Assembly (NCBI GenBank): GCA_977017645.1
Contig: OZ360247.1
Coordinates: 43,958,001-44,022,000 of the forward strand
Length of the DNA stretch: 64,000 bases
Direction of reading: 5' to 3'
Origin: Torpedo marmorata
Lineage: Eukaryota
Shown here: piece by piece, positions 106-59,598 of the stretch
Position numbering within the stretch: position 1 is the stretch's first letter
Layout of the letters: the number at the start of each line of letters is the position of its first letter
Made by a program: the position numbers and the translations under genes
The notes under the pieces: model-generated
What the model saw: only the letters and a program-made list of their open reading frames with translations
Database searches by the model: none
What the model was told of the DNA's origin: nothing

Positions 106-3100
106 TTTAAAATACAATCTGTGGTTATAGATGTGGTAGGTAGATATGTTTTAATACATTGTCAGATATATTCAGAAATGTGGACACTTATGAATATATA
201 TGTACCAAACATGGAAGATGAACAATTTATTCAAGATTTATTAATGCATTTATCAGAAGCTAACGATAATATTTTAATTGGTGGGGATTTTAATTGTTGT
301 TTAGATCCGATAATGGATAAAACATCAAAATCAGTTGTTAAAATTAAATTGCTAAAAGAATTCTTATTTTGATGAAAGATTTAAATTTAATAGATATTTG
401 GAGAAAGTTGAATCCAAGAGAAAAAGATTACTCTTTTTATTCTTTTAGGCATGATTCATATTCTAGGATAGATTTATTTTTATTGCCCTCACAAGTACAA
501 GATAGGGTAACTCAAGCATATTATAAAGCAAGAATAATTTCTGATCATTCGCCGTTATTAATGTCTTGTATAATTTCAGAAAAAGAAAAAACTATATATA
601 GGTGTAGATTTAATTCTTCTTTATTAAAAAGAATGGATTTCTGTAATTATATAAGAAGAGAAATTCAAGAATTTTTACAGATTAATTCTAATTCGATTGA
701 TAATAAATTTATTATTTGGGAAGCTTTAAAGGCTTATTTAAGAGGTCAAATAATAAGCTATTCAGCAAAAGTTAAGAAGGAATATGTTTGTGAGGTGGAT
801 AATTTGGAGAGGGAGATTGAAGTCCTGGAGAAGGACTTGCAAAAAAAGAGATCAAAAGAAAAGAGGAAAAATTTAATTGGAAAAAAATTGTATTGTAATA
901 CGTTACAAACTTATAAAATGGAAAAATTAATTGAAAGAACGAAGCAAAGATATTATGAATTGGGAGAAAGAGCGCATTAAGTGTTGGCGTGGCAATTAAA
1001 GAAAGAACAAACCTCTAGAACTATAAATGCTATAAAAAAGAATTCCAAAAAAATAACATAAACCTCGAGAAATAAATGATTCTTTTAAGGAATTTTATTT
1101 GAATTTATATAAATCTCAAATTGATAAAGATGACTCTAAAATTAATGAATTCTTATCTAAAATTAAGTTACCTAGATTAAATACTCAAAGTAAAGAATTT
1201 TTGGATTTGCCTTTTTTGATGAGGGAAGGTTCTTAGCTCTTTAGCGAGTGGAAAATCTCCAGGAGAAGATGGTTTCCCATCAGAATTTTATAAGGAGTTT
1301 AAAGATTTATTGATACCTCCATATATGGATGTGTTGAGGCAAATAACAGAAACTCATTCGTTACCAGAAACATTTTCGAATGCAATAATTACAGTTGTAC
1401 CTAAAAAAGATAGAGATGTGTTGAAAACAGAATCATATAGACCAATTTCATTGTTAAATGTGGATTATAAGATAATGGCAAAAATTTTAGCAAATAGAGT
1501 GGCTAATTATTTACCAGATTTAATTCATGAAGATCAAGCTGGTTTTATTAAAAATAGATATTCAAAAGATAATATAGCTGGATTCATTAGTTTAATTAAT
1601 GTGGGGAAAAAAAAGATGATTTACCATTAGTATTAACTTTAGATGCTGAAAATGCTTTTGATAGATTAGAGTGGAATTATTTATTTAAGGTATTGGAGAA
1701 ATTTGGTTTTGGAACTACATTTATTAATTGGATCAAAATTATATATAAAGAACCATCTGCTCAAGTGGTGACAAATGGACAAATTTCTTCAAAATTTTCT
1801 TTGACTAGGTCAACTAGACAGGGATGTCCCTTGTTGCCAGCATTGTTTATTTTAGCAATAGAACCTTTGGCAGAATTAATTAGACAAGATATTAAGTTTG
1901 TAGGTATTAAAGTTGGAAGAGAAGAACATAAAATTAGTTTATTTGCAGATAATGTATTGATTTATATGACAAACCCTATTATTTCTTTATTACAATTGAA
2001 TGTTTTATTGAAAGAATATGGGGAAATATCTGGTTATAAGATTAATTCTGATAAAAGTGAAATTATGGCATTGACACAAGGGGATTATAGTAAATGTAAA
2101 GAAATTACACAATTTAAATGGTCAAAGGAAGGAATTAAATATCTGGGAATAAAGATTGATACAAAATTAGCTAATTTATATAAATTAAATTATCTACAAT
2201 TATTTACGAAAATTAAAAAAGATTTAGAAAGTTGGAAGGATTTACCTATAACTTTAATAGGAAGGATAAACTGTATTAAAATGAATGTCTTTCCAAGAGT
2301 TCAATATCTTTTCCTATCAATTCCTTACGAAATTCCTTTGAAATTCTTTAAGGATTTAAATTTAATTATTAGGAAGTTTTTGTGGAAAGGAAAGTTGGCT
2401 AGAGTAAGTGTGGAGAAATTAACTTGGAACTATGAAATAGGTGGTTTACAACTTCCTAATTTTCAAAATTACTATAAAGCAGCTCAATTAAAATTTGTTA
2501 ATGAAATGTTTGATTTAGGTAAGTCTTCTCCTTGGATTAGAATAGAATTAAATAATATAGGAGAAGATTTGAAAGAAGAAGTTATTTATAAATGGAATTC
2601 TAAATTAATATTAATAAGAGGGAAGAATTCTCCTATTTTTAAACATTTGTTAGAAATATGGAATAGAGTGGATAGTGAGATTGGAGGGAAAGGCTCAATT
2701 TCTCGAAAAATGCCTCTATATCAAAATAAACTTATTCCATTTACTGTTGATAATCAATTATTTAAAATTTGGTTCCAAAAGGGAATTAAGAAAATAAATG
2801 ATTATTTTGAAGCCAGTAAATTTATTACTTTTCAAAGAATGAAAGATAAGTTTAATGTATTGAATAATACACTTTTTGCTTATTATCAAATTAGAGCATT
2901 TTTAGTTGGGAAGTTGGGTTATAGTTTGATTCTACCAAGACAGAGTGAACTAGAATTATTAGTTACTAATGGAGGTGTAAATAAATTTATTTCTCAAATG
3001 TATGGATTGTTTCAGAGAAAAATCCCTAAAGTAGGAATTCATAAATCAAGATTAAAATGGGAATCAGATTTGAATGTAACAATAGATGAAGAACATTGGA

Positions 3101-3983
3101 AAGAATTATGTAAATTAAGTATGACGAAGATTATTAACATTAGATATAGATTAGTTCAATATAATTTTTTTCATCAATTATATTTAACGCCTAAAAAATT
3201 AAATAAATTTAATTCGACATTATCAGGTTTATGTTTTAGATGTAATAGAGAGGAAGGTTCTTTTGTACATTCTACATGGTTTTGTCCAAAGATATATGAT
3301 TTTTGGTTGAAAGTTAAAAACTTTTTAGATAAAGTATTGAATATTACACTTCCATTGGACCCTATGATATTTTAGTTTGGAGATATTAAAAGAATTAGTA
3401 TTAAGATGAAATTAAATATGTATCACATAGAATTTTTGTGAATTGCTTTAGCTGTTTCTAAGAAATGCATTGCTATTACATGGAAATCTGATGTAGATTT
3501 AGGGTTAGAGAGATGGCATGCAGAATTTCGTTCATGTATACCACTTGAAAAAATTACTTATAATTTACGTAATAAATACCATTTCTTTTTGAAAATATGG
3601 AGCCCATATATAAAAGCTGTTGGTTTAAGGATTTGAATCTCTAGACATCGGATCTGACTGGCGAACCTATCCTCCACAATAAAATCAGTTTATAGATGTA
3701 CTTTTTAGATTGACATTATCTTTTTCTTTCTTTTTTTTATTATTTTAGTAGATTAGTATGGGCTCCCTGTGTTTTCGGCGTGGTTGTCGGCTGGGCCGTA
3801 CAGTGTACTGTGCGACTCAGCTGCACCTCATCGGTGAGTCGGTGTGAGTCAGGGGGGTGGGAGGGTTAGGGAGGGGAGGGAGGGAGGGGGATTGAAAATG
3901 TATCACATGTATTTTGATAATTTTATATTTTAATTTATGTACTTCGTGATTTAAAATTTTAAATAAAATATTTTTTTTTAAAA
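106..3983 (+). mobile_element. 5'-truncated L1-clade LINE (broken ORF2: end of APE endonuclease, RT, C-terminal Cys motif; 3'UTR with G-rich tract and A tail)
   Basis: ORF fragments contain IGGDFN, YSRIDLF, SDHSP, YRPISLLNVDYKI, TRQGCPL, LFADN and CFRC..HSTWFC, with several stops and frameshifts. A 15-bp TSD AGGAGTGCCCAAAGG lies at 91-105 and 3984-3998. Confidence 0.93.
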
Positions 3984-4399
3984 AGGAGTGCCCAAAGGGC
4001 CAGGCACGTGGGTAGTTTATGAGAAAGACTACTCTTTCCATTACTTTTATTTGGCTTCTGTGCTCCTGACACATGGACTCAAGGTTCTTAAGACCAAATG
4101 CTCCATCTTTGAGCAGTCAAGGACACTCTGAGCTATGCTGACTGAAGTGGCCACTCAGTTCAGAGGGCATGACAGATACATAACACGTTAAACGATGATC
4201 AGTTAACAACTAAAGATGCCATTATCTTATTTATGACCTGCATATCACTTGAAGCATATTTCTGGAGGATAAGGATTTGTGCTTTTCCCTAATTCAGCAC
4301 AACAAGTCCATTGAACATAGTTGATAAAGTTTTTTAATGACAGAGAATGAAGAAAGAGCAAGCAAATGTTTTCAGGATGGACAAGATGCTTCATAGCCA

Positions 4400-4625
4400 A
4401 TGAAATACTACTGAATTGCATGTTAGAAGCATAGAAAACTATGCACAATGATGTTCAACAAACAGATCGTGAATGACAATATAATTTGCATTGATGATGG
4501 TGGCTGAAAAATTATTGCTGTCAAGAATACTGATGATTTCCAAAAAAATGCTGTGTGAACTTAGGATCGATTGAACAGGCAGCTAAGGCAATAGGTTAAA
4601 ATTTCATCGTGAAGGGGGCACTGAA
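4400..4625 (-). mobile_element. Very degraded DeuSINE-like fragment
   Basis: Loose similarity by eye to the reverse complement of the Deu core seen at 17560-17850. Confidence 0.3.
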
Positions 4626-4659
4626 AGAATAACCTAAATACATTTGGCAATAAAAAATT

Positions 4660-4822
4660 GGGGCAGCACAGTGAGCGCAACGCTGTTACAGCACCAGTAA
4701 CCCGGGTTCGAATGTGGCACTAGTCTGTAAGGAGTTTGTACGTTCTCCCTGTGTCTGCGTGGGTTTCCTCCGTGTGCTCTGGTTTCCTCTCACCCTCCAA
4801 AAAAACGTACGGGGATTGTTAA
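4660..4822 (+). mobile_element. tRNA-derived V-SINE (HE1-like elasmobranch SINE), tail missing
   Basis: GGGCAGCACAG head, B-box GGTTCGAAT and V-core GGAGTTTGTACGTTCTCCCTGTGTCTGCGTGGGTTTCCTCC; related copies at 13.8, 30.6 and 60.5 kb. Confidence 0.85.
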
Positions 4823-4899
4823 AACATTTAGAAAGAATTTTAATACAAAAGGCACAAAATATGCACACGTAGGGACTCTGAATAGTTTGTTATGTTACG

Positions 4900-7093
4900 T
4901 ACATGAACTGGGAGCAGGAGTAAGCCACCCATCCCCTCAAGCATGCTCGGCCATTCCATAAAGCTATGGTTGTAACATCAATTCTGTGTTCCTGCCTACC
5001 CACAGAAAACTTTTACTATCTTGCTTATCAACTATCTATCTCTGCCTTAAAATATTCAAAGATTCCATTCCACTGCCCTTTGAGAAAAAGTTCCAAGAAC
5101 TCATGAACATTAGAGAGGATAAATTCGTCTCATTTCTGTTTAAATGGGTGACCCTTTATTTTCAAATGGTGATTTCTAGTTGTATATTTCCCACAGCAGG
5201 AAACATCGTCTTTACATTATACCCTGTCAAGTCCTCTCAATCACTCTTCTAAACTCCAACAGACATATGCCTTGCCTGTTCAATCTTTCTTCATAACTTG
5301 GCCATTCCAGGCATTAGTCTAGAAACCCTTCTCTGAACTGCTTCCAACACATTAGATCCGTCCTTAAATAAGGAGATGAATGTTCTACACAATGCACCAG
5401 ATGTGATCTCACTTAACTGAAGCAGAACATCTGTAATGTTATATTCAATATTCTTACCAATAAATAACTAATAAAATTTTTATCTTCCCTAATTACAAAC
5501 TTGGGCGGCACGGTTAGCAAAGCGTTAGCGCAACGCTGTTACAGTGCCAGCTTGTCCTAGACTCTCCCATCATGGGAAACAACCTTTCAAAATTTACTCT
5601 GTCCATGCCTTTCAACATTCAAAATGTTTCAATGAGATCCTCCTCATTCTCCTAAATTCAAGAGCTGTCAAACGCTCCTCATATAATAAGCCTTTCATTC
5701 CCGGAATCATCCTCGTGAACCTCCTCTGAACCCTCTCCAACGTCAGCACATCCTTTCTTAAATGAGGAGCCCAAAACTGCTCACAATACTCCAAGTGAGG
5801 TCTCATCAGTGCCTTATAAAGCCTCAACATCACATCCCTGCTCGTATATTCTATTCCTCTTGAAATGAATGCCAGCATCGTATCTGCCTTCTTAACCACC
5901 GACCCAATCTGCAAGTTTACCTTCAGGCTATCCTGCACGAGGACTCCCAGGCCCCTTAACATTTGGGTATTTTCAATTTTCTCCCCATTTAGAAAACAGT
6001 CTGCCCATTTATTTTTTCTACCAAAGTGCATGACTGTACAATTTCCAATATCGTACTTCATTTGTCACTTCTCTGCCCATTCTCCTAATCTGTCTAAGAC
6101 CTCAACACAACCTGCTCTTCCACCTACCTTTGTATCATCTGCAAACTTGGCAACAAAACCATTTATTGCATAATCTATTCTAAATCATTAATATACAACA
6201 TAAAAAGAAGCAGCCCCAACACCGACCCCTGTGGAACACACTAGAAACTGGCAGTGAACCAGAATATGATCCCTGTATTCGGACTCTCTGCTTCCTGCCA
6301 ACCAGCCAATGCTCTACCCACACTAGTATGTTTCCAGTTATACCATTGGCTCTTATCTTGTTAAGTAGCCTCACGTGCATCACCTGGTCAAAGGACTTCT
6401 GAAAATCTAAATACACAACATCCACTACATCTCCTTTATTAGCCTGCTTGTCACTTCTTCAAAGAATTCCAATAGGTTTGTCAAGCAAGATTTTCCCTTA
6501 AGGAAACCATGCTGGGTTTGCCCTATTTTGCCATGAGCCTCCACGTACTCTGTAACCTCATCCTTGACAATCACCTGCAACATCTTCTCAACCACTGACG
6601 TCAGGCTAACCTGTAATTTCCTTTCTGCTGTCTCCCTCCCTATTTGAATAGTAGGGTGACATTTGCAATTTTCCAGTCCTCCGGGACCACACCAGAACCT
6701 ATTGATTCCTGAAAGATCATTACAAATGCCTCCATAATCTCAACCGCTACTTCTTTCAGAACCCGAGTGTTCAATCCATCTGGCCTGGGAGACTTAGACC
6801 ATTCAGCTTTCTGAGCACCTTTTCCCTTGAAACAGTAACTGCACTCACTTCCCTTCCTTCCCTGATACCCTTTGACATCTGGCACACTACTAATGTCTTC
6901 TACAGTGAAGAATGATGCAAACTACTCATATAGTTCCTCTGCCATCTTCTTGTCTCCCATTATTATTTCTCCAGCTTCATTTTCTAGTGGTCCTATATCT
7001 ACTCTCATCTTTGTTTTACTCTTTATATACTTTAAGAAGCTTTTTGTATCCTCTTTGATATTATTTGCTGGCCTACTATCATACTTCATCTTT
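4900..7093 (-). mobile_element. CR1-clade LINE fragments (RT region), with a SINE head at about 5502-5551
   Basis: Minus-strand ORFs with [37 protein letters not shown] and LERVQRRFTRMIPG. Confidence 0.88.
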
Positions 7094-7182
7094 CAGATCA
7101 AGACCCTGACAAAAAGCAGATAGAGAGGTATGTGGGTGACAGACAGATAGAACCAAGTGGGCGAGAGTTATGGCTCTCAGAA

Positions 7183-7599
7183 CAGTGGTTCTCAACCTTT
7201 TTTTCCACTCACATACCAACTTAACATAAGAACATAAATAGGAGCTGGAGCAGGCCATCCGGCCCGCTGAGCCTGCTCCGCCATTCAATAGGATTATGGT
7301 TGATCTGATGATAGGCTCATCTCCACCGACCTGCCTTTTCCTCAAATCCCTTAATTCCCTTACTATGTAGAAATCTATCCAACCTTGTCTTAAATATATT
7401 TACTGAGGTCGCCTCCACTGCTTCAATGGGCAGCAAATTCCACAGATTCACCACCCTCTGGGAAAAGCAGTTCCTCCTCATCTCCGTCCTAAATTTACTA
7501 CCCTGAATCTTCAGGCCATGTGCCCATAGGATGGCACAGGTGCTCTCTAAGTTAGTAAGGTGGTATGTGAGTGGAAAAAAAAAAGGTTGAGAACCACTG
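7183..7599. mobile_element. hAT (Charlie-type) MITE interrupted by a CR1 3' fragment (about 7224-7525, minus)
   Basis: TIRs CAGTGGTTCTCAACCTTTT / AAAAGGTTGAGAACCACTG; imperfect 8-bp flanks TCTCAGAA/TCCTAGAA. Confidence 0.8.
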
Positions 7600-7935
7600 T
7601 CCTAGAAGGATGAAAAAGGTGAACAAAAGGAAAGATAAACTGGGTGGACATAGCAACTAGAAAGGGTGTGGGTAACCAGGAATGGGAAAATACAATGTTC
7701 ATACCAGCGGAGTGGAGGCTACCCAAAAAATACTCTGTGCTTTCCGCCTTAGTAATTAAACCTAGATCAGTTCAATCCTGAACGTTATGTAAGTGACAAA
7801 TTGTACACTCAAACTTGGCCACACCAGTAACAGAAGATTCTGCATACAGCCACCATATCAAAAAAACAAACATCAGACTCAATTATCAACACTTCATCAG
7901 AATCACTCATGACCATCCTCAAATGGTCAAAGATG

Positions 7936-9049
7936 ACTGTTTTGAAGCTGGGAAATTTATTACTTTTCAAAGAATGAAAGATAAATTTAATATATTGGAT
8001 AATACACTTTTTGCTTATTATCAAATTAGAGCATTTTTGGTTGGGAAATTAGGTTATAGTTTGATCTTACCAAGACAGAATGAATTAGAATTATTAGTTA
8101 CTAAAGGAGATGTAAATAAATTTATTTCTCAAATGTATAGATTGTTTCAGAGAAAAACTCCTAAAGTAGGAATTCATAAATCAAGATTAAAGTGGGAATC
8201 AGATTTGAATGTAACAATAGATGAAAATCATTGGAAAGAATTATGTAAATTAAGTATGACAAAGATTATTAATGTTAGATATAGATTAGTACAATACAAT
8301 TTTTTTCATCAATTATATTTAACACCTAAAAAATTAAAGAAATTTAATCCGACATTATCAGGTTTATGTTTTAGATGTAATAAAGAGGAAGGTTCTTTTG
8401 TACATTCTACATGGTTTTGTCCAAAAGTTTATGATTTTTGGTTGAAAGTTAAAAAATTTTTAGATAAAGGATTAAAGATCACATTCTCAATGGATCCTAT
8501 GATATTTTTGTTTGGAGATATTAAAAAAGTTAGTATTAAGATGAAATTAAATATGTATCAAATAGAATTTTTGCGAATTGCTTTGGCTGTTTCTAAGAAA
8601 TGCATTGCTATTACTTGGAAATCTGATATAGATTTAGGGTGAGAAAGATGGCATACAGAACTTCGTTCATGTATACCACTTGAAAAAATCACCTATAATT
8701 TATGTAATAAATATCATTTTAAAAAAAAAATTTGGAGCCCATATATGAAAGTTGTTGGTTTAAGGATCTGAAGATCTCTGGATATCGGATCTACTGGCGA
8801 ACCTAACCTCCATAATAAAATTAGTTTATAGATATATATTTTTTAGATTGACATTCTCCTTACTCTATCTTTTTCTTTCTTTTTATTTTATTTTTATTTT
8901 TTATTTTATTAGATTAGTAGGGATGGGAGGGTTAGGGAGGGGAGGGTGGGAGGGGGGGGGTGAAAATGTACCACAAGTATTCTGATAATTTTATATTTTA
9001 CCTTATGTATTTTGTGATTTAAAATTTTAAATAAAATATTTTAAAAAAT
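7936..9049 (+). mobile_element. L1 3' fragment, same subfamily as 106-3983
   Basis: ORF nearly identical to the C-terminus of the 1693-3375 ORF; G-rich 3'UTR and A tail; 14-bp TSD AATG(G/T)TCAAAGATG at 7922-7935 and 9050-9063. Confidence 0.92.
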
Positions 9050-9099: not shown

Positions 9100-9640
9100 C
9101 AATGACGTTTGAAAGCTCCCACAGTGTTTGACAGTTCAGCAATAACGCCTGCACTTAGAAACTACAACGTCCAGGATGCAACAGGAAAGGCCCAGGGCTG
9201 GAGGAATGGCCAGTACACCTATCACTCAAGCTGTACCCCGCCCACCTCCACCAATCACCGATCGAGGAAACGCCTTCTCTCTTTGCGGCAACGGGACGTC
9301 AATCAAGGTCGTCATCGCTGCTGGTCAGATCACGTGGTACGTGACGTTAGGGGCGGGTTCAGGAGGCGAGAGGCCGAGAGCGAGCAGTGAAGAGCAAAAA
9401 AAAAAATTGATCCGCGAGGAAAACAAGTGTCGGCAAAATGGCTGACAAATTCGCTCTGGTTCAACGAGGAGCGGGAATTCCAGGTAAAAGAGAACAAGAG
9501 CGGCGGCCGCGGGAGGGCTGGCGCGGCGCGGCGGCCGTGACGGGAGGTGTCGGGCGGCTCTGGTGCCAGGGCTCGCTGCTGCTCGGCGCTGCCGCCTCCC
9601 CGCCCCCACTGCCTTCCTCTGCAGGGCAGAGGCCTGGGCA
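9100..9640 (+). promoter_or_regulatory. GPATCH8: CpG-island, TATA-less promoter and first exon region of GPATCH8
   Basis: CpG-dense. ZNF143/SBS-like ACTACAACGTCCAGGATGCA at 9161-9180, CCAAT 9251, CRE-like GACGTCA about 9295 and GTGACGT 9341, E-box CACGTG 9331, GC box GGGGCGGG 9350, and YY1-like AAAATGGC over the ATG. Confidence 0.8.
9438..9483 (+). CDS. GPATCH8: GPATCH8 coding exon 1 (MADKFA-R-FNEEREFQ; one extra base at 9456-9459 as assembled)
   Basis: ATG GCT GAC AAA TTC GCT [CTGG] TTC AAC GAG GAG CGG GAA TTC CAG|GTAAAA matches the recalled vertebrate N-terminus MADRFSRFNEDRDFQ. The exon is 46 nt where 45 is needed. Confidence 0.88.
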
Positions 9641-12366
9641 GCCTCGTGATGTCCCGGCCTCCCCCCCTCATCCCGACCCCCCCTCAGCCCGTGATGTCCC
9701 GGCCTCCCCCCTCATCCCGACCCCCCCTCAGCCGTGATGTCCCAGCCTCCCTTCCCTCATCCCGACACCCCCCCCCTCATCCCCGAACACCCCCCCCNNN
9801 NNNNNNNNNNNNNNNNNNNNNNNNNNNNNNNNNNNNNNNNNNNNNNNNNNNNNNNNNNNNNNNNNNNNNNNNNNNNNNNNNNNNNNNNNNNNNNNNNCGA
9901 CCCCCCCTCATCCCGACCCCCCCTCATCCCGACCCCCCTCATCCCGACCCCCCCGTCATCCCGACCCCCCTCATCCCGACCCCAGTCATCCCGACCCCCG
10001 TCATCCCGACCCCCGTCATCCCGCCCCCCGTCATCCCGCCCCCCCGTCATCCCGCCCCCCCCTCATCCCGACCCCCCCTCATCCCGACCCCCCCTCATCC
10101 CGATCCCCCCTCATCCCCGACCCCCCCCTCATCCCGACCCCCCCTCATCCCGACCCCCCCCTCATCCCGACCCCCCCCCTCATCCCGACCCCCCCTCATC
10201 CCGACCCTCCCCTCATCCCGACCCCCCCTCATCCCGACCCCCCCCTCATCCCGACCCCCCCTCATCCCGACCCCCCCTCATCCCGATCCCCCCTCAGCCC
10301 GTGATGTCCCGGCCTCCCCCCCTCATCCCGACCCCACCCTCATCCCGACCCCCCCTCATCCCGACCCCCCCCTCATCCCGACCCCCCCTCATCCCGACCC
10401 CCCCCTCATCCCGACCCCCCGCTCATCCCGACCCCCCCTCATCCCGACCCCCCCCTCAGCCCGTGATGTCCCGGCCTCCCCCCCTCATCCCGACCACCCC
10501 CCTCATCCCGACCCCCCGTCATCCCGACCCCCCGTCATCCCGACCCCCCGTCATCCCGACCCCCCCTCATCCCGACCCCCCCTCATCCCGACCCCCCTCA
10601 TCCCGACCCCCCTCATCCCGACCCCCCCTCATCCCGACCCCCCCTCATCCCGACCCCCCCTCATCCCGACCCCCCCCTCATCCCGACCCCCCCTCATCCC
10701 GACCCCCCCTCATCCCCGACCCCCCTCATCCCGGTCTAACCCCCGCACCCGGGTCCCTCCCTGCCCCTCACACCCGGGTCCCTCCTCCCCTCCCCCACCC
10801 CCGGGTCCCACCCACTCCCCCCCTCACCCGGGTCCCTCCCCCCACCGCTCCTGGGTCCCTCCCCCCCACCGCACCCGGGTCCCTCCTCCCTCCCCCCCAC
10901 CCCGCACCCGGGTCCCTCCTCCCTCCCCCCCACCCGGGTCCCTCCCCCCGCACCCGGGTCCCACCCATTACCCCCGCACCCGGGTCCCACCCACTCCCCC
11001 CCGCACCCGGGTCCCTCCTCCCTCCTCCCCCCCCCGCACTCGGGTCCCTCCCCCTCCCGCACCCGGGGCCCTCCCCACCGCACCAGGGTCCCCCCCCCCG
11101 CACCCAGGTCCCTCTACCCCCCCCCGCACCCGGGTCCCTCTACCCCCCCCCCCCCGCACCCGGGTCCCTCCGCACCCGGGTCTCCCCCCCCCTCCGCACC
11201 CGGGTCCCTACCCCACCCTCCGCACCCGGGTCCCTCCCCCTCCCCCCCGCACCCGGGTCCCTCCCCCCCCGCACCCGGGTCCCTCTACCGAACCCCCGCA
11301 CCCGGGTCTCCCCCCCCCCCGCACCCGGGTCCCTCCCCCCCCCCGCAACCGGGTCCCTCCCCCCCCCCCGCACCCGGGTCCCTTCCCTCCCCCGCACCTG
11401 GGTCCCTCCTCCCTCTCCCCCCCCCCACCCGGGTCCCTCCCCCCCCGCACCCGGGTCCCTCCCCCCCCCCTGCACGCGGGTCCCTCCCACCCCCCCGTAC
11501 CCGCGTCCCTCCCCCCCGGGTCCCTCCTCTCCTCCCCCCCCCACGCAATCGGGTCCTACCCAACCCCCCCCCCCCACACCCGGGTCCTACTCCCCCACCC
11601 CCTCCACTACACCGGGTCCTACCCCCCCAACCCCCGCACCAGGGTCCTACCCCCCCACCCCCAGGTCCAACCCCCCCACCCCCCGCCCCCGGGTCCCTCC
11701 TCCTCCTCTCCCCCCCCCCCGCCCCCGGGTCCTACCCCCCCACCCTCCCGCACCCGGGACCCTCCTACCTCCCCCTTCCCCTTGCACCCGGGTCCCTCCT
11801 ACCCCCCCTCTGCACCCGGCTCCTACCCCCCCCCGCACCTGGCTCCTACACCCCCCCCCTTGCACCCGGGTATCCCCCCCTACACCCGGGTTCTACACCC
11901 GCACCCGGGTCCTCCTCCCTCCCCCTCCCCCACTTCCCCTGCACCCAGATCCTCCTTCCCGCCCAGCACCTGGGACCCTTCTCCCCCCACCCTGGTACTC
12001 CTCCCACCCCCCCCCCTGCACCCAGGTCCCTTCCCCCTCCCCCAGCATCCGGGTCCCTCTCCTCCCGCGCCCCGGTCCTGCCCCCTCACCTCGATGCTCA
12101 CCCCAGACCTGCCCCGGGCCCACAGGCCCCGGTCCCCCTCCCCCGCGCCCCCTCCCCTGGTCCCCCTCCCCCGCACCCCGGTCCCGTGGTCCGGCCCCAG
12201 CTCCCCGGTCCCTCCCCCGCGCCCCGGTCTCTCCCCCACGCCCCGGACCCTCCCGCTCCCAGGTCCCTTCCCCGGTCCCTCCCCCGCGCCCGATCCCTCC
12301 CCCGCTCCAGGTCCCGCCCCTGGTATTGCCCCACACCCTGGTCCCGCCTCCCCTCCCCTCCCCCCA
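9640..12366. repeat. C-rich minisatellite array at the start of intron 1
   Basis: Unit about CCTCATCCCGACCCC(C)n over 9660-10730 with interspersed CAGCCCGTGATGTCCCGGCCTCC; then CCGCACCCGGGTCCCTCCCC over 10740-12100, degenerating to 12366. Confidence 0.95.
9798..9897. other. Assembly gap (100 N)
   Basis: Run of exactly 100 N inside the minisatellite. Confidence 0.99.
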
Positions 12367-13804
12367 ATGGGTTCCAGACATTTGGCTATAGGATGAGAAT
12401 ATTTAAAGGGATTTTCATATCCTAATCTCAATGCAGCTGAGGTTGGCATCAGGTTTCATCAAATAGTATGATGATCATATTTTAAACAGTTTCAATGAAA
12501 TAGCAGGTTGCTGAACTCTATAATGAGTACCTGCATGCAGTACAAGAGAGGTAAAGTAATGAGCATATCTGAAATCAAATAAATATCAAGGTCCAGTGCA
12601 TAGTGATCCTTGCAAAATTGCTGCATCAAAAAAGCACAAGCTGCATATGGGCTTGAGATTGCCACGTTATTCGATCAAGGATCACGGTAGGCTGGGAATT
12701 AGTTTTTAATATTCCTAGATTCCAACTATTCAGCAATCATAAATACAAGGATACTGTTCTAAATACAGTGCCCTCCATAATGTTTGGGACAAAGAAATTT
12801 TTTCCTTTATTTGCCCCTGTGCTCCACAGTTTTAAATTTGTAATCAAACGATTCACATGTGATTAAAGTGCACATTCCAGATTTTATTAAAGGGTATTTG
12901 AATACATTATGGTTTGACCATGTAGAAATTACAGCACTTTTTATACATCGTCCCCTCATTTCAGGGCACCATAATGTTTGGGACATTTGGCTTCACAGGT
13001 GTTTGTGAATACTCGGGTATGTTTAATTGCTTCATTGGTGCAGGTATAAGAGAGCTCGGCTTGGTTCTAAGCTTTTGATCACCTTTGGAGTCTGTAGTTG
13101 CCATTTTTCAACATGAGGGCCAGAGTTGTGCCAATGAAAGTCAAAGAAGCCATTATGAGGCTGAAAAACAAGAATAAAACAGTAAGAGATATCGCCCAAA
13201 CATTAAGATTACTCAAATCATCTGTTTGGAGCATCTTTAAGAAAGAGCTCAGTAATCGCAAAGGGACTGGTAGGCCAAGGAAGACCTCCACTGCCGATGA
13301 CAGAAGAATTCTCATCATAATGAAGAAAAATCCCCAAACGCCTGTCCGACAGATCAGACGCACTCTTCAGGAGGCAGGTGTGGATGTATCTATGACTACT
13401 GTCTGCAGAAGACTTCATGAACAGAAATACAGAGGCTACTCTGCAAGATGCAAACTACTAGTTAGCCGCAGAAACAGGATGGCCAGATTACAGTTTGCCA
13501 AGAAGTATTTAAAAGAGCCTGCAGAATTCTGGAAAAAAAAGGTCTTGTGGACAGATGAGACCAAGATTAACGTGCATCAGAGTGATGACAAGAGCATAAA
13601 GGAACTGCCCAAGATCCAAAGCATACCACCTCATCTCTGAAACATGGTGGTGGGGGTGTTATGGCCTGTGCATGTATGGTTGCCACAAGTACTGGCGCAT
13701 TTATCTTCATTGATGATGTAACTGCTGATGGCAGTAGCAAAATGAATTCTGAGGTGTATAGAAACATCTTATTTTAAATTTAAATTTTAAAATTTTTTAT
13801 TAAA

Positions 13805-14038
13805 AAAAATTAGACATGCAGCACGGTAACAGGCCATTTCAGCCCACGAGCCCGTGCTGCACAATTACACCCAATTAACCTACAACTCCTGGTACGTTTT
13901 GAATGGTAGGAGGAAACCCTTGCAGATACGGGGAGAACGTACAAAGGTCCTTGCAGACAGCGCGGGATTCGAACCCCGTACCCGATCGCTGGTACTGTAA
14001 TAGCGTTGCGCTAACCACTACGCTAACCGTGCCGCCCT
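13805..14038 (-). mobile_element. HE1-like SINE
   Basis: Reverse complement of the SINE head (CTAACCGTGCCGCCC, GATTCGAACCC) plus a CR1-like tail. Confidence 0.85.
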
Positions 14039-14950
14039 CAAGTTCGAGCAAATGCCTCCAAACTTATTGGCTTCATGTATACTCACATGTCTGTCCATGG
14101 CCTCATGTAACCCATTTCAGTTCTGTCACACTCCCATACTCATGTCTGTCCATGGCCTCATGCACTATCCCACCAAGACCACCCACAAATTGGAGGAACA
14201 ACACCTGATTTTCCATCTGGGCACTCTCCAGCTGAATGACATTAATATCAACTTTTCTGGTTAGTGCTAACCTGCTCTCCTTTCCCCCTCCCTTCCCTTC
14301 CCCATGTCAGCTCTTGTATCAGATTCGGTGGGTTCACAGAGAGACGAGTCTGGACACAAGGGTTTGCAATCACACGTAGCTTTTATTAACACACAACAAT
14401 TTATAGAGGAGCATGGGAAAATTAACGGGAATAAAACATGCGCACAATTTATAAAGGAGTGGGAAAATGTTACGGGAATAAAACGCGCACAATTTATAAA
14501 AGCGTGGGAAAACGTTACGGGAATAAAACACAAGCGCACAATTTATAAAAGAGCGTGGGAAAACGTTAAACAGTACACAATTATTAATTCACACAGGTGG
14601 TGCCGACATTTGCACACTATAAGCAGGGGTAATACACAGCGTCCCGGACCCCTGATAGTCGGGAGGCAGCTCTGGTACAAACGGTACCCACAGGGGTATA
14701 CACACATTCCCGGACCCCTGATCGTTGGGAGGTGCGGCTCTACTGCGAGTATCGATCTATAGCAATTTGAACTATAGCGATGCTATGGCTCAGCTTCAGT
14801 GCAGTGCACACCTTACCTGCGACCCTTCCAAGCGACATCCACGGTAGCGACCTGGCATGGAGCGGTGTCCGGGGCTATCACCACGAGGCAGAGAGAGAGA
14901 AATGTGCTCTGTACTAATGCTAAATAGGGTGCTAATTTGTGTGTCTCGCC

Positions 14951-15491
14951 CAGCGTTTCCTAAAATGGGTTCGGCGGAACCCAGGGATTCTGGAAAGGCA
15001 TAGGGATTCTGCGGAAGAAATGTGACGGAGTAATAACGATCTGCGCGGGTGAAGCCGGTGACTGTGGGCCAGAGTCAGCGCTGTTGCCGACGTGCGCTGT
15101 GGTTTCTGGGAGCTGGCGGTGGCGACATGAAGATTTGCGCCGTGTGCGAGGAGGGGGCTCCGAAATACAGCCTGTCACCTGCGGTAAAAGGGGTGCGCAG
15201 CCAGCGGTGTCTGATGCGGTGGGGGCGGACGGGGGTAGCCTGGGCCGCGGCGGGGAGCGAGGGGCGGCGGGGGTGACCCGGGCCCGTGGCGGGGCAAGGT
15301 CGGGGGGGGCCTTTCTAAAGCTCAGCCTAGGGCCGGGGTGGTAGTTAATCTGCTACTGGTGAGTTTAATTACTTTCTTACTATGCTTGTGTATATACCAG
15401 GTCTTTTAAACTGTAATTGACGATTGGGGTTCCGTGATTTCCAAGTGCTCCCCGAAAGGGTTCTGTGGGCTAAAAAGTTTGGGAAGCCCTG
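14951..15491. mobile_element. Non-autonomous hAT element carrying GC-rich, gene-like cargo
   Basis: TIRs CAGCGTTTCCTAAA / TTTGGGAAGCCCTG, subterminal GGGTTC motifs, 8-bp flanks GTCTCGCC/GTCTAGTC (6 of 8 match; Charlie-like target). Confidence 0.75.
15127..15191 (+). pseudogene. Captured first-exon fragment of a HIT-type zinc finger gene (ZNHIT3-like)
   Basis: GGCGAC-ATG context; MKICAVCEEGAPKYS then, after a net 1-nt shift, TCGKR. This gives the CxxC-x8-[C]xxC first half of zf-HIT, followed by GC-rich intron-like DNA. Confidence 0.55.
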
Positions 15492-17249
15492 GTCTAGTCA
15501 AAAGTGACGCTGAGTGATTTGAATTAGCCAACGGCAAGGTGTGCACTAATTAGTGGCCGGAGCCCAACGTTGACTGACAGGTGATGTAATTAGTGGCCGG
15601 AGCTCAACCTTGATTGACAGGTGATGTGACTTCCGAATAAGTTCCAGGGAGGGGAGGGGAGGGGAGGGGAGGGGGGGGGGGGGGGGAGGGAGGACACGTG
15701 ACCACCCGCAATACACACATCCCAGACAGGCAGGGAGGCCACATTTCCTCCACACACAACAGCTCTCCACCCCCTTCCCTCTCTATTCACTTAGCCAACC
15801 CTCATCCGCTTGCTTGCTGCTGTGCCCTCTCTCCCTTCTCCACCTATTACCTCCTGCCTTTGCGACCACATCTCCCCTTACCCTTTTATTCGGACACCTG
15901 GCGACATTTTTCCATACCTTGATGAAGGGCTCAAGCACGAAACGTCAGTTATGTATTTTTATATTTGCTATATAAAGTACACTGTTTGACCTGCTGAGTT
16001 TCTCCAGCATTGTGGTTTTACTCCAAACTTATTGGACGGCGCTTCATCCCAAGCATACAGCTAAAGCAATAAAAATTTTCAAAGCTAAAAACTGGAAAAT
16101 TCTTGAATGGCCAAGTCAGTCCCCCGATCTCAATCCAATTGAGCATGCCTTCCATCGGCTGAAGAGAAAACTTAAGGGGACAAGCCCCAAAACAAGCACG
16201 AGCTGAAGATGTCTGCAGTAGAGGCCTGGCAGAGCATCACCAGAGAAGATACTCAGCACCTGGTGATGTCTATGAATCACAGACTTCAAGCAGTCATTGC
16301 ATGCAAGGGATATGCAACAAAGTACTGAACATGACTACTTAAATATATATACCATTGCTATGTCCCAAATATTATGGTGCCCTGAAATGAGGGGACAATG
16401 TATAGAAAGTGCTGTAATTTTTACATGGTCAAACTAAAATGTACACATATACTCTTGAATAAAATCTGGAATGTGCACTTTAATCACATGTGAATTGTTT
16501 GATTTCAAATTTAAAACTGGAGCACAGGGGGAAGTAATGGAAAAAAATGTGTCTTTATCCCAAACATTATGGAGGGCACTGTGGAAAGGATCTACTGGAT
16601 AGTTCAAGGATGAGGTTGAAGAACAAAAGAGTTACTATTGCATTGGTTATTTTTAAAAATAAATGAGGATCCAAATAACTAAATCAAGGTAGATGAGCCA
16701 TTTCATGAGCAAATTTCAATAGCGAATAACAGAAAGTTTAAGTTATCTCCCATTTCGGAGAAATGATACCAACTGTAGGAAAGGAGATTTTTTGATGTGG
16801 AAAGGATGTTTTTGGTCTGTGTGTCGAAAGCCAAAAGAGGAAGGGAACAATAGTGATAAAACTAAAAAAGTGTAATGAATGTTATAATAAATACATAACC
16901 AGAAAGATTATGAAAGTGAGACTGATAAAGTTAATTTTTCAGACAAAGAATTCGATGGAAAAGATTGAGACAAAATTGAAGTGCTCTGGCACTTAAACAG
17001 CAGCTAAGACTTGCATATTTAAGCAAAAAATGAACAAATTTATTAACTCATGACATTCTCCATGTTGATGAAAGATGTGGCTAAATATGTACCGGTACTT
17101 TGCATCTGTCTGCAAAGAAGGCAGTTGATGTGATTGTTACACTAAAGAGGGAAGGCATGGATAGAGGATGCACGTTTTAAAAAGTAGGTAAGTTACCTTG
17201 ACCAAACAGATTGCTGAAAGGAACAGCAATCGATATTCCACTGAGACAC

Positions 17250-21456: not shown

Positions 21457-21560
21457 CAGTGGTTTTCAAGCTTTTTCTTTCCACTCACATACCACCTTAA
21501 GTAATCCCTTTCTAATCACAGGTGGTATGTGAGTGGAAAGAAAAAGTTTGAAAACCACTG
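21457..21560. mobile_element. hAT MITE (same family as 7183-7599), preceded by a partial sibling end near 21328-21347
   Basis: Palindromic CAGTGGTTTTCAA..TTCCACTCACATACCACC / GGTGGTATGTGAGTGGAA..TTGAAAACCACTG. Confidence 0.8.
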
Positions 21561-25879: not shown

Positions 25880-26115
25880 CGTAGGCAGTTCTACAGATGC
25901 CATAGGTGCTCTGTGGTTAGTAAGGGATTACTTAGGGTGGTACGTGAGTGAAAAGAAAAAGGTTGAGAATCATTGGACTAGAGCAGTGGTTTTCAGACTG
26001 CCCCTCTAGACTCACATTCCACCTTAAGCAATCCCTATGCCATAAGTGCTCTGTGATTAGTAAGGGATTGCTTAAGGTGGAATGTGAGTTTAGGGGGGCA
26101 GTTTGAAAACCACTG
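25880..26115. mobile_element. Two abutting hAT MITEs: partial 25880-25975 and complete 25984-26115
   Basis: The complete copy is a long palindrome with perfect 8-bp TSD GACTAGAG (25976-25983 and 26116-26123). Confidence 0.85.
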
Positions 26116-28309: not shown

Positions 28310-28384
28310 GGGAATCACTTTGATCATTACGAAGAAGGACATCTGGAGATTGAACAGGCATCTTTAGACAAGCCAATAGAATCG
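28310..28384 (+). CDS. GPATCH8: GPATCH8 exon 2 (GNHFDHYEEGHLEIEQASLDKPIES)
   Basis: TTTTTAG| acceptor, |GTAAGA donor, 75 nt, phase 0-0; peptide matches the recalled GPATCH8 N-terminus. Confidence 0.95.

Positions 28385-37695: not shown

Positions 37696-37986
<291 letters not shown>

Positions 37987-59469: not shown

Positions 59470-59598
<129 letters not shown>

Follow-up and report, generated by a model that had tools for sequence, protein, structure and literature searches.

The 64-kb stretch of DNA analysed here (the window) contains, at positions 14951 to 15491 of the plus strand, a 541-bp hAT element with Charlie-type ends. The reading favoured in this article, held with good but incomplete confidence, is that this copy is a non-autonomous Charlie-type hAT which carries the first exon of a zf-HIT gene with its leader and the start of its intron, that ZNHIT3 was the likely source at the DNA level, and that the copy is likely silent and decaying within intron 1 of GPATCH8. 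It probably belongs, as a decayed copy, to a multicopy Pack-TIR family of a kind already known in animals but of unusual abundance. The Pack-TIR kind is known, the abundance and the cargo are unusual, and the new aspect is that the exon is not unique and occurs in many copies in two relatives.

The two ends of the element match each other as inverted repeats at 11 of 14 positions, and the 8-bp sequences flanking them are equal at six of eight letters. Taken alone, these values are modest evidence for a hAT element: 122 position pairs in the 64-kb window reach both. A CAG start combined with a CTG end occurs in four of the 122, and the other three of these share Charlie-type ends. Compared with the Anolis TIRs given in table 1 of PMC3014272, the ends agree with hAT-HT2 at 11/16 and 14/16 positions and with hAT-HT3 at 11/14 and 12/14; both open with CAG-N-G, fitting the YARNG start motif described in the same source, and the right flank agrees at five of six positions with the TCTAGA core (consensus from PMC3014272 and PMC2836564). 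The 8-bp target duplication with NTCTAGAN preference that marks the Charlie type is present, its left copy (14943–14950) having two differences from the right copy (15492–15499), which represents the original target. The 5' arm (14951–15025, inner limit approximate) includes the TIR at 14951–14964 and subterminal motifs at 14967 and 15004, and the 3' arm (15359–15491), common to a far more abundant family, has subterminal motifs at 15427 and 15458 and the TIR at 15478–15491. The interior of about 330 bp, part of which is a second repeat, falls inside the 100–5,000 bp range of the Pack-TIR definition. None of the 19 open frames of the element contains a transposase domain (Pfam), in keeping with a non-autonomous hAT. 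Neither the element nor the end found at 15358 occurs a second time in the window.

Contigs of four runs (X1, X2, X10 and X13) out of 13 were aligned to the window. The runs come from relatives and not from the window's own genome, because most of their contigs are less than 95% alike (1,485 of 1,907 in X1; 1,720 of 2,506 in X2) and the best run contains 22% of the window's words; all copy counts given below therefore refer to contigs of these relatives. That X10 and X13 are RNA runs is a guess. One X2 contig passes directly from 14942 to 15492, skipping 549 bases, and since this is exactly 541+8 bases it supports the insertion independently of the ends, the short side of the joint being only 25 letters long. 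Sequence resembling the left flank is joined straight to 15492/15493 in 20 X2, nine X1 and one X13 contigs, which are probably paralogous insert-free copies of the host repeat rather than the orthologous site. The insertion of a hAT with an 8-bp duplication is real, and the element predicted with TIRs at its two ends is borne out by the ends, the flanks and the skipping contig together.

The surrounding gene, which we take to be GPATCH8 on the basis of peptide motifs and a G-patch exon, lies on the plus strand, with coding exon 1 at 9438–9483, exon 2 at 28310–28384 (75 bases, phase 0), the G-patch exon at 37801–37873 (73 bases) and a further exon, marked by peptide motifs, near 59513. The element is located in intron 1 in sense orientation, as predicted. 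As assembled, exon 1 measures 46 bases, one base too many for the frame of exon 2; the probable cause is an error of assembly close to the gap of 100 N at 9798–9897, which is 315 bases away. The start of intron 1 (9640–12360) is occupied by about 2.7 kb of C-rich minisatellites, with the assembly gap inside.

The element forms the innermost of four nested levels. The outermost is a Tc1 element (12765–16582, plus strand; 225-bp TIRs, 90% alike), which also holds a SINE and within which an insert of about 1.95 kb is flanked by a 15-base duplication. This insert includes the repeat that received the hAT (14315–15715, minus strand, limits approximate), multicopy in X2, for which the TG..CA termini and a poly(A) signal in antisense suggest an LTR-like nature. 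The host repeat has two tandem arrays, at 14396–14568 (45-nt unit, 3.6 copies) and 15547–15627 (40-nt unit, 2 copies). Three other Charlie-type MITEs with 8-bp duplications occur in the window, at 7183–7599, 21457–21560 and 25984–26115; the first two share the same ends, and 7183–7599 holds about 310 extra bases of other origin.

The cargo begins with a CpG-rich leader (15026–15126; CpG o/e 1.15), multicopy in the relatives and likely a captured 5' UTR, which contains a candidate ZNF143-like motif with a partial match. It is followed by what is likely the captured coding part of a ZNHIT3 first exon (15127–15183), comprising an ATG, a first CxxC, an 8-base deletion behind 15167 and the last Cys of a second CxxC. 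The predicted ATG at 15127, its initiation context and the first 15 residues were confirmed, the first Cys standing three residues on. In the frame opened by this ATG, zf-HIT (PF04438) is the sole match among 24,736 Pfam families (E 0.055, 13.7 bits), and the score rises to 19.4 bits (E 0.00088) when the peptide is read across the break, the frame-corrected comparison that the original prediction had proposed. Both values are below the curated cut-off of 24.7 bits, the second because half the domain is present: only positions 2–16 of the 30 in the profile are represented, and the likeness is to a fragment, not a domain. The raw match is weak, being no better than matches of chance size. Among 17 control ATG-CxxC peptides of the window none matched zf-HIT and two matched unrelated families (E 0.011 and 0.07), as did two of the 19 frames of the element (E 0.02 and 0.073). 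The longer frame at 15037–15276 gave no zf-HIT match at E 1.

Proteins with a zf-HIT domain follow a rule of two CxxC pairs separated by seven to eight residues, and in the window copy this pattern is broken by the loss of 8 bases. These bases are present behind 15167 in four X2 contigs (108 of 857 in depth) and two X10 contigs (58 of 79); they are absent from the X1 rows listed (23 rows lie outside the list), several of whose alignments end at this place. With them the peptide gains Arg-Cys-Pro and the ATG frame passes into that of 15170–15184, so that the X2 and X10 contigs have both pairs whole, as CxxC-x8-CxxC. The contigs thus favour this frame over the one at 15177 (TCGKR) with which the original prediction had continued the peptide. 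Among the 65,536 possible 8-base inserts, 32 would give Tyr-(Arg/Lys)-Cys-Pro, a motif that was picked after the data were seen.

One X10 contig of 99 bases (depth 51.5; X10 is guessed to be RNA) keeps the frame unbroken from the ATG to 15184 and differs from the window by five substitutions and two gaps. Its leader has three extra bases, present also in one X2 contig of depth 10 and in none of the other contigs listed, which hints at a distinct allele, possibly that of the donor. The contig stops short of any second exon. A splice junction was weighed as the reason for its end at 15184 and discarded: a variant at 15162, 31 letters away, explains the break, and DNA depth falls there too.

The zf-HIT likeness ends at a GT at 15184, a candidate splice donor whose first six intron bases are those of the GPATCH8 exon 1 donor. 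An in-frame stop follows directly, and neither the second half of the zf-HIT domain nor a poly(A) is present behind 15184 in the element. Since the similarity ends at a GT, a stop follows and poly(A) is lacking, exon 1 would have been captured at the DNA level, with 15184–15221 as the likely captured start of the intron; two listed contigs align through 15187. A Pack-TIR should not be a retro-duplicate and should keep the intron; on this point the observations are confined to the GT end, the stop, the lack of poly(A) and two contigs aligned four bases past the GT. The predicted uptake, from DNA, of the start of a zf-HIT gene by a non-autonomous hAT is supported by the 8 extra bases, the GT end and the absence of transposase domains in 19 of 19 open frames; its description as a single event is not borne out, as the copy is one of a multicopy family.

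In human ZNHIT3, exon 1 ends one codon further on than the captured exon, and Pro-Lys-Tyr-Arg-Cys-Pro is the signature of the protein. The ZNHIT3 domain is reported at residues 11–42 (PMC10555848) and Cys14 as encoded in exon 1 (PMC11383450; also PMC9418376), a layout (N-terminal zf-HIT, first CxxC in exon 1) that fits the cargo. ZNHIT3 is the likely donor because the knuckle begins three residues after the ATG. Searches for a zf-HIT protein reference returned no matches among solved structures and no homologue in word-index searches; an unindexed protein search gave four matches, all to repeat-rich unrelated proteins, and Atlas scores were all under 0.9. A degenerate DNA pattern of the exon was found in zero stretches of metagenome and viral contigs, and the six Rfam matches at E up to 1 were all under the gathering score and all outside the hAT.

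Behind the putative intron start, the interior consists of two GC-rich 39-nt units (15222–15294), the number of which varies among related copies as seen from contig joints that go back, and of a segment of a second high-copy repeat (15291–15358) with its own TIR-like end at 15358, recognized from contig flanks. Before 15291, 43 X1 and 29 X2 contigs carry other sequence; behind 15358, 72 X1 and 39 X2 contigs continue into unlike flanks. The segment either arrived with the donor intron or was added later. Consequently, the interior that was predicted to be a G-rich first intron can be maintained as such for 15184–15221 only, the remainder being the 39-nt units and the second repeat. At 15357–15366, nine X2 and two X10 contigs have a different conserved sequence before the 3' arm. 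This sequence ends immediately ahead of a donor-like GTGAG and could be either the interior of the parent family or the end of a second captured exon.

The CpG richness noted in the original prediction is present (o/e 0.96–1.15 over 15026–15294, against 0.40 for the window), and as a marker of the cargo it was rejected, since the host repeat to the left is equally rich (0.94). At listed sites with T in the window and C in the relatives, seven of eight are TpG, and C>T plus G>A changes account for 49 of 88 variant places in X1 and 37 of 75 in X2. CpG decay is evident in this copy, which is probably silent.

In the relatives, the exon belongs to a multicopy sequence. The same letter, other than that of the window, stands at 15140 in 81 X1, 61 X2, five X10 and two X13 distinct contigs. 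Summed depth, which is not equivalent to copy number, reaches 5,226 (X1) and 3,734 (X2) over the exon, against 5–26 for single listed contigs, and 1,000–8,700 (X1) and 1,100–6,100 (X2) in the leader bins at 15037–15120. The region of the 5' subterminal motif (14995–15036) is covered at 550–2,700, near the level of the exon, and one X1 contig joins it to 15092; over the 5' TIR, at 14953–14994, depth is only 15–115. The 3' arm reaches 38,000 in X1 and 96,000 in X2, about 7 to 25 times the exon, which fits descent of the cargo-bearing form from a larger parent family. Behind 15491, 54 X1 and 37 X2 contigs run into diverse flanks, a diversity that concerns the 3' arm on its own rather than complete copies with the cargo. 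In X1, six single contigs connect the leader or the exon with 15229–15277, and four listed contigs (two X1, two X13) bridge 15358 into the 3' arm; no contig listed covers the whole element or connects the 5' TIR with the exon. Diverged copies carrying the exon can safely be placed at dozens in the relatives, and hundreds are plausible.

These data may be accommodated in the following scheme. An ancestral Charlie-type element would have taken up an open, CpG-rich gene start while keeping both arms, presumably by template switching during gap repair or replication as in the FoSTeST model (PMC8277862). The cargo-bearing element would then have been spread in trans by a Charlie-type transposase, and the window copy, once inserted in the LTR-like repeat, would have suffered the 8-base loss in the exon and the decay of its CpG sites. 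At present it would be removed together with the intron.

Alternatively, the exon may have been captured and spread by the repeat that ends at 15358, or the element may be a mosaic of small hAT families, the Charlie arms having moved a finished composite; mosaics of this type have been described for the Anolis hobo-N families (PMC3014272). This course of events is unlikely, although it accounts for the second end at 15358 with its unlike flanks, for the different conserved sequence preceding the 3' arm in nine X2 and two X10 contigs and for the thin coverage of the 5' TIR. It agrees poorly with the 15358 end, which has no inverted partner inside the element (best 8/14), and with the multicopy state of 14995–15036 and its junction to 15092 in one X1 contig. 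A different source of the cargo, either another zf-HIT gene (ZNHIT2, ZNHIT6 or other) or an RNA-templated patch instead of ZNHIT3 genomic DNA, is improbable. PF04438 covers the whole zf-HIT family, which leaves some room for such a source; the ATG three residues before the first Cys, the N-terminal position of the domain in ZNHIT3 (PMC10555848) and its Cys14 in exon 1 (PMC11383450) point to ZNHIT3 itself, and a similarity that ends at the GT, not continuing into the next exon, speaks against an RNA template. That the interior is ordinary non-coding MITE sequence with a zinc-knuckle likeness by chance is barely credible: the raw Pfam match is weak, controls gave chance matches of that size and any MITE interior would be multicopy. 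Against it, the second CxxC is found complete and correctly spaced in contigs from two further organisms, as only 32 of 65,536 inserts would make it, and the zf-HIT score rises across the break.

The original prediction also considered that the copy could offer GPATCH8 an alternative start or exon, and co-option as an alternative first exon is very doubtful. The orientation is sense, the candidate donor agrees with that of exon 1 over the first six bases of the intron, and with the 8-base loss the distance from ATG to donor is 57 bases, in phase 0 and in frame with GPATCH8 exon 2, which the longer form (65 bases) is not; in addition, the canonical exon 1 is out of frame at its assembled 46 bases. 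However, chance would give a matching frame in one case out of three, CpG decay is seen in the leader, three other repeats enclose the element, and the shift in exon 1, so close to the assembly gap (315 bases), is more simply put down to an error of assembly. Beyond the frame coincidence nothing argues for an alternative start, and the CpG decay argues against it. In its widest form, a hAT family would have scattered a housekeeping gene start to hundreds of sites as portable first exons, with the window copy supplying GPATCH8 with an alternative or replacement N-terminus; this is equally remote. The reading preferred here therefore remains that of a captured zf-HIT first exon in a decaying hAT copy, and a function of the window copy itself is unlikely.

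Capture of host DNA by cut-and-paste elements was presented in the original prediction as much less documented in vertebrates than in plants; vertebrate cases are on record among the Pack-TIRs of animals (Tan et al., 2021; PMC8277862). That survey reports 370 Pack-TIRs in 100 animals, of which 208 are hAT and four (1.4%) multicopy; host DNA in animal cut-and-paste elements is described as mostly single-copy and made without transposition, multicopy cases being rare and small. The elephant shark is given with zero Pack-TIRs, and ZNHIT3 goes without mention in the accessible text. A Pack-TIR is defined there by both TIRs, of at least 10 bp, and by a unique parental copy with at least 90% identity and without flanking TE; the present element has both ends of one TIR element (11/14 between them; 11–14 of 16 to a published hAT TIR). 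Pack-hAT-N8_XT of Xenopus tropicalis, which carries the 5' UTR of CAPSL in three copies (PMC8277862), resembles it in that the ends of a non-autonomous hAT enclose a few hundred bases of GC-rich 5' sequence from the host, and in a presumed spread by repeated transposition with target duplications. In contrast to that element, the cargo here extends over the ATG and coding codons to a candidate donor, and unlike the Pack-TIRs of the survey it is found in dozens of distinct contigs per species and is common to several organisms.

A high-copy cargo consisting of a gene start through its first donor is likewise present in HelibatN3-NUBPL (2014; PMC4224331), a Helitron with about a thousand copies and observed fusion transcripts, and elements of this type can give splice sites to other genes. 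That element is a rolling-circle Helitron with counted copies and fusion transcripts, whereas the one described here is a cut-and-paste hAT whose further copies are seen as contigs. The hAT-HT2N/HT3N families of Anolis (PMC3014272) are similar in their TIRs (11–14 of 16; 11–12 of 14) and in their NTCTAGAN-type 8-bp target; they differ in that no gene cargo is seen for them in the accessible text, and the family likeness is judged by ends only. Plant Pack-TYPE elements, including maize Pack-hAT with its large hAT clusters (PMC8903248), also capture and spread pieces of host genes, and the pieces captured by Xenopus Heli1Xen1 (PMC12001565) share the 5' bias, but these are elements of plants or Helitrons and not vertebrate hATs. 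HE1 SINEs are treated in PMC2911107. A hAT carrying zf-HIT sequence is not reported among the literature matches listed, subscription papers and repeat databases being outside the scope of the search; the family may be catalogued in repeat databases without its cargo having been noticed.

If this reading is true, a hAT family that carried a coding first exon into dozens or hundreds of sites and lasted through several related species would match, among cut-and-paste elements, the Helitron-NUBPL case of bats. The lineage, likely cartilaginous fish as judged from its SINE and LINE types, is one in which the survey of Tan et al. found none. The family would provide many replicates of one captured gene start, with which it may be asked whether such starts escape methylation, create transcript starts or draw silencing onto the donor.
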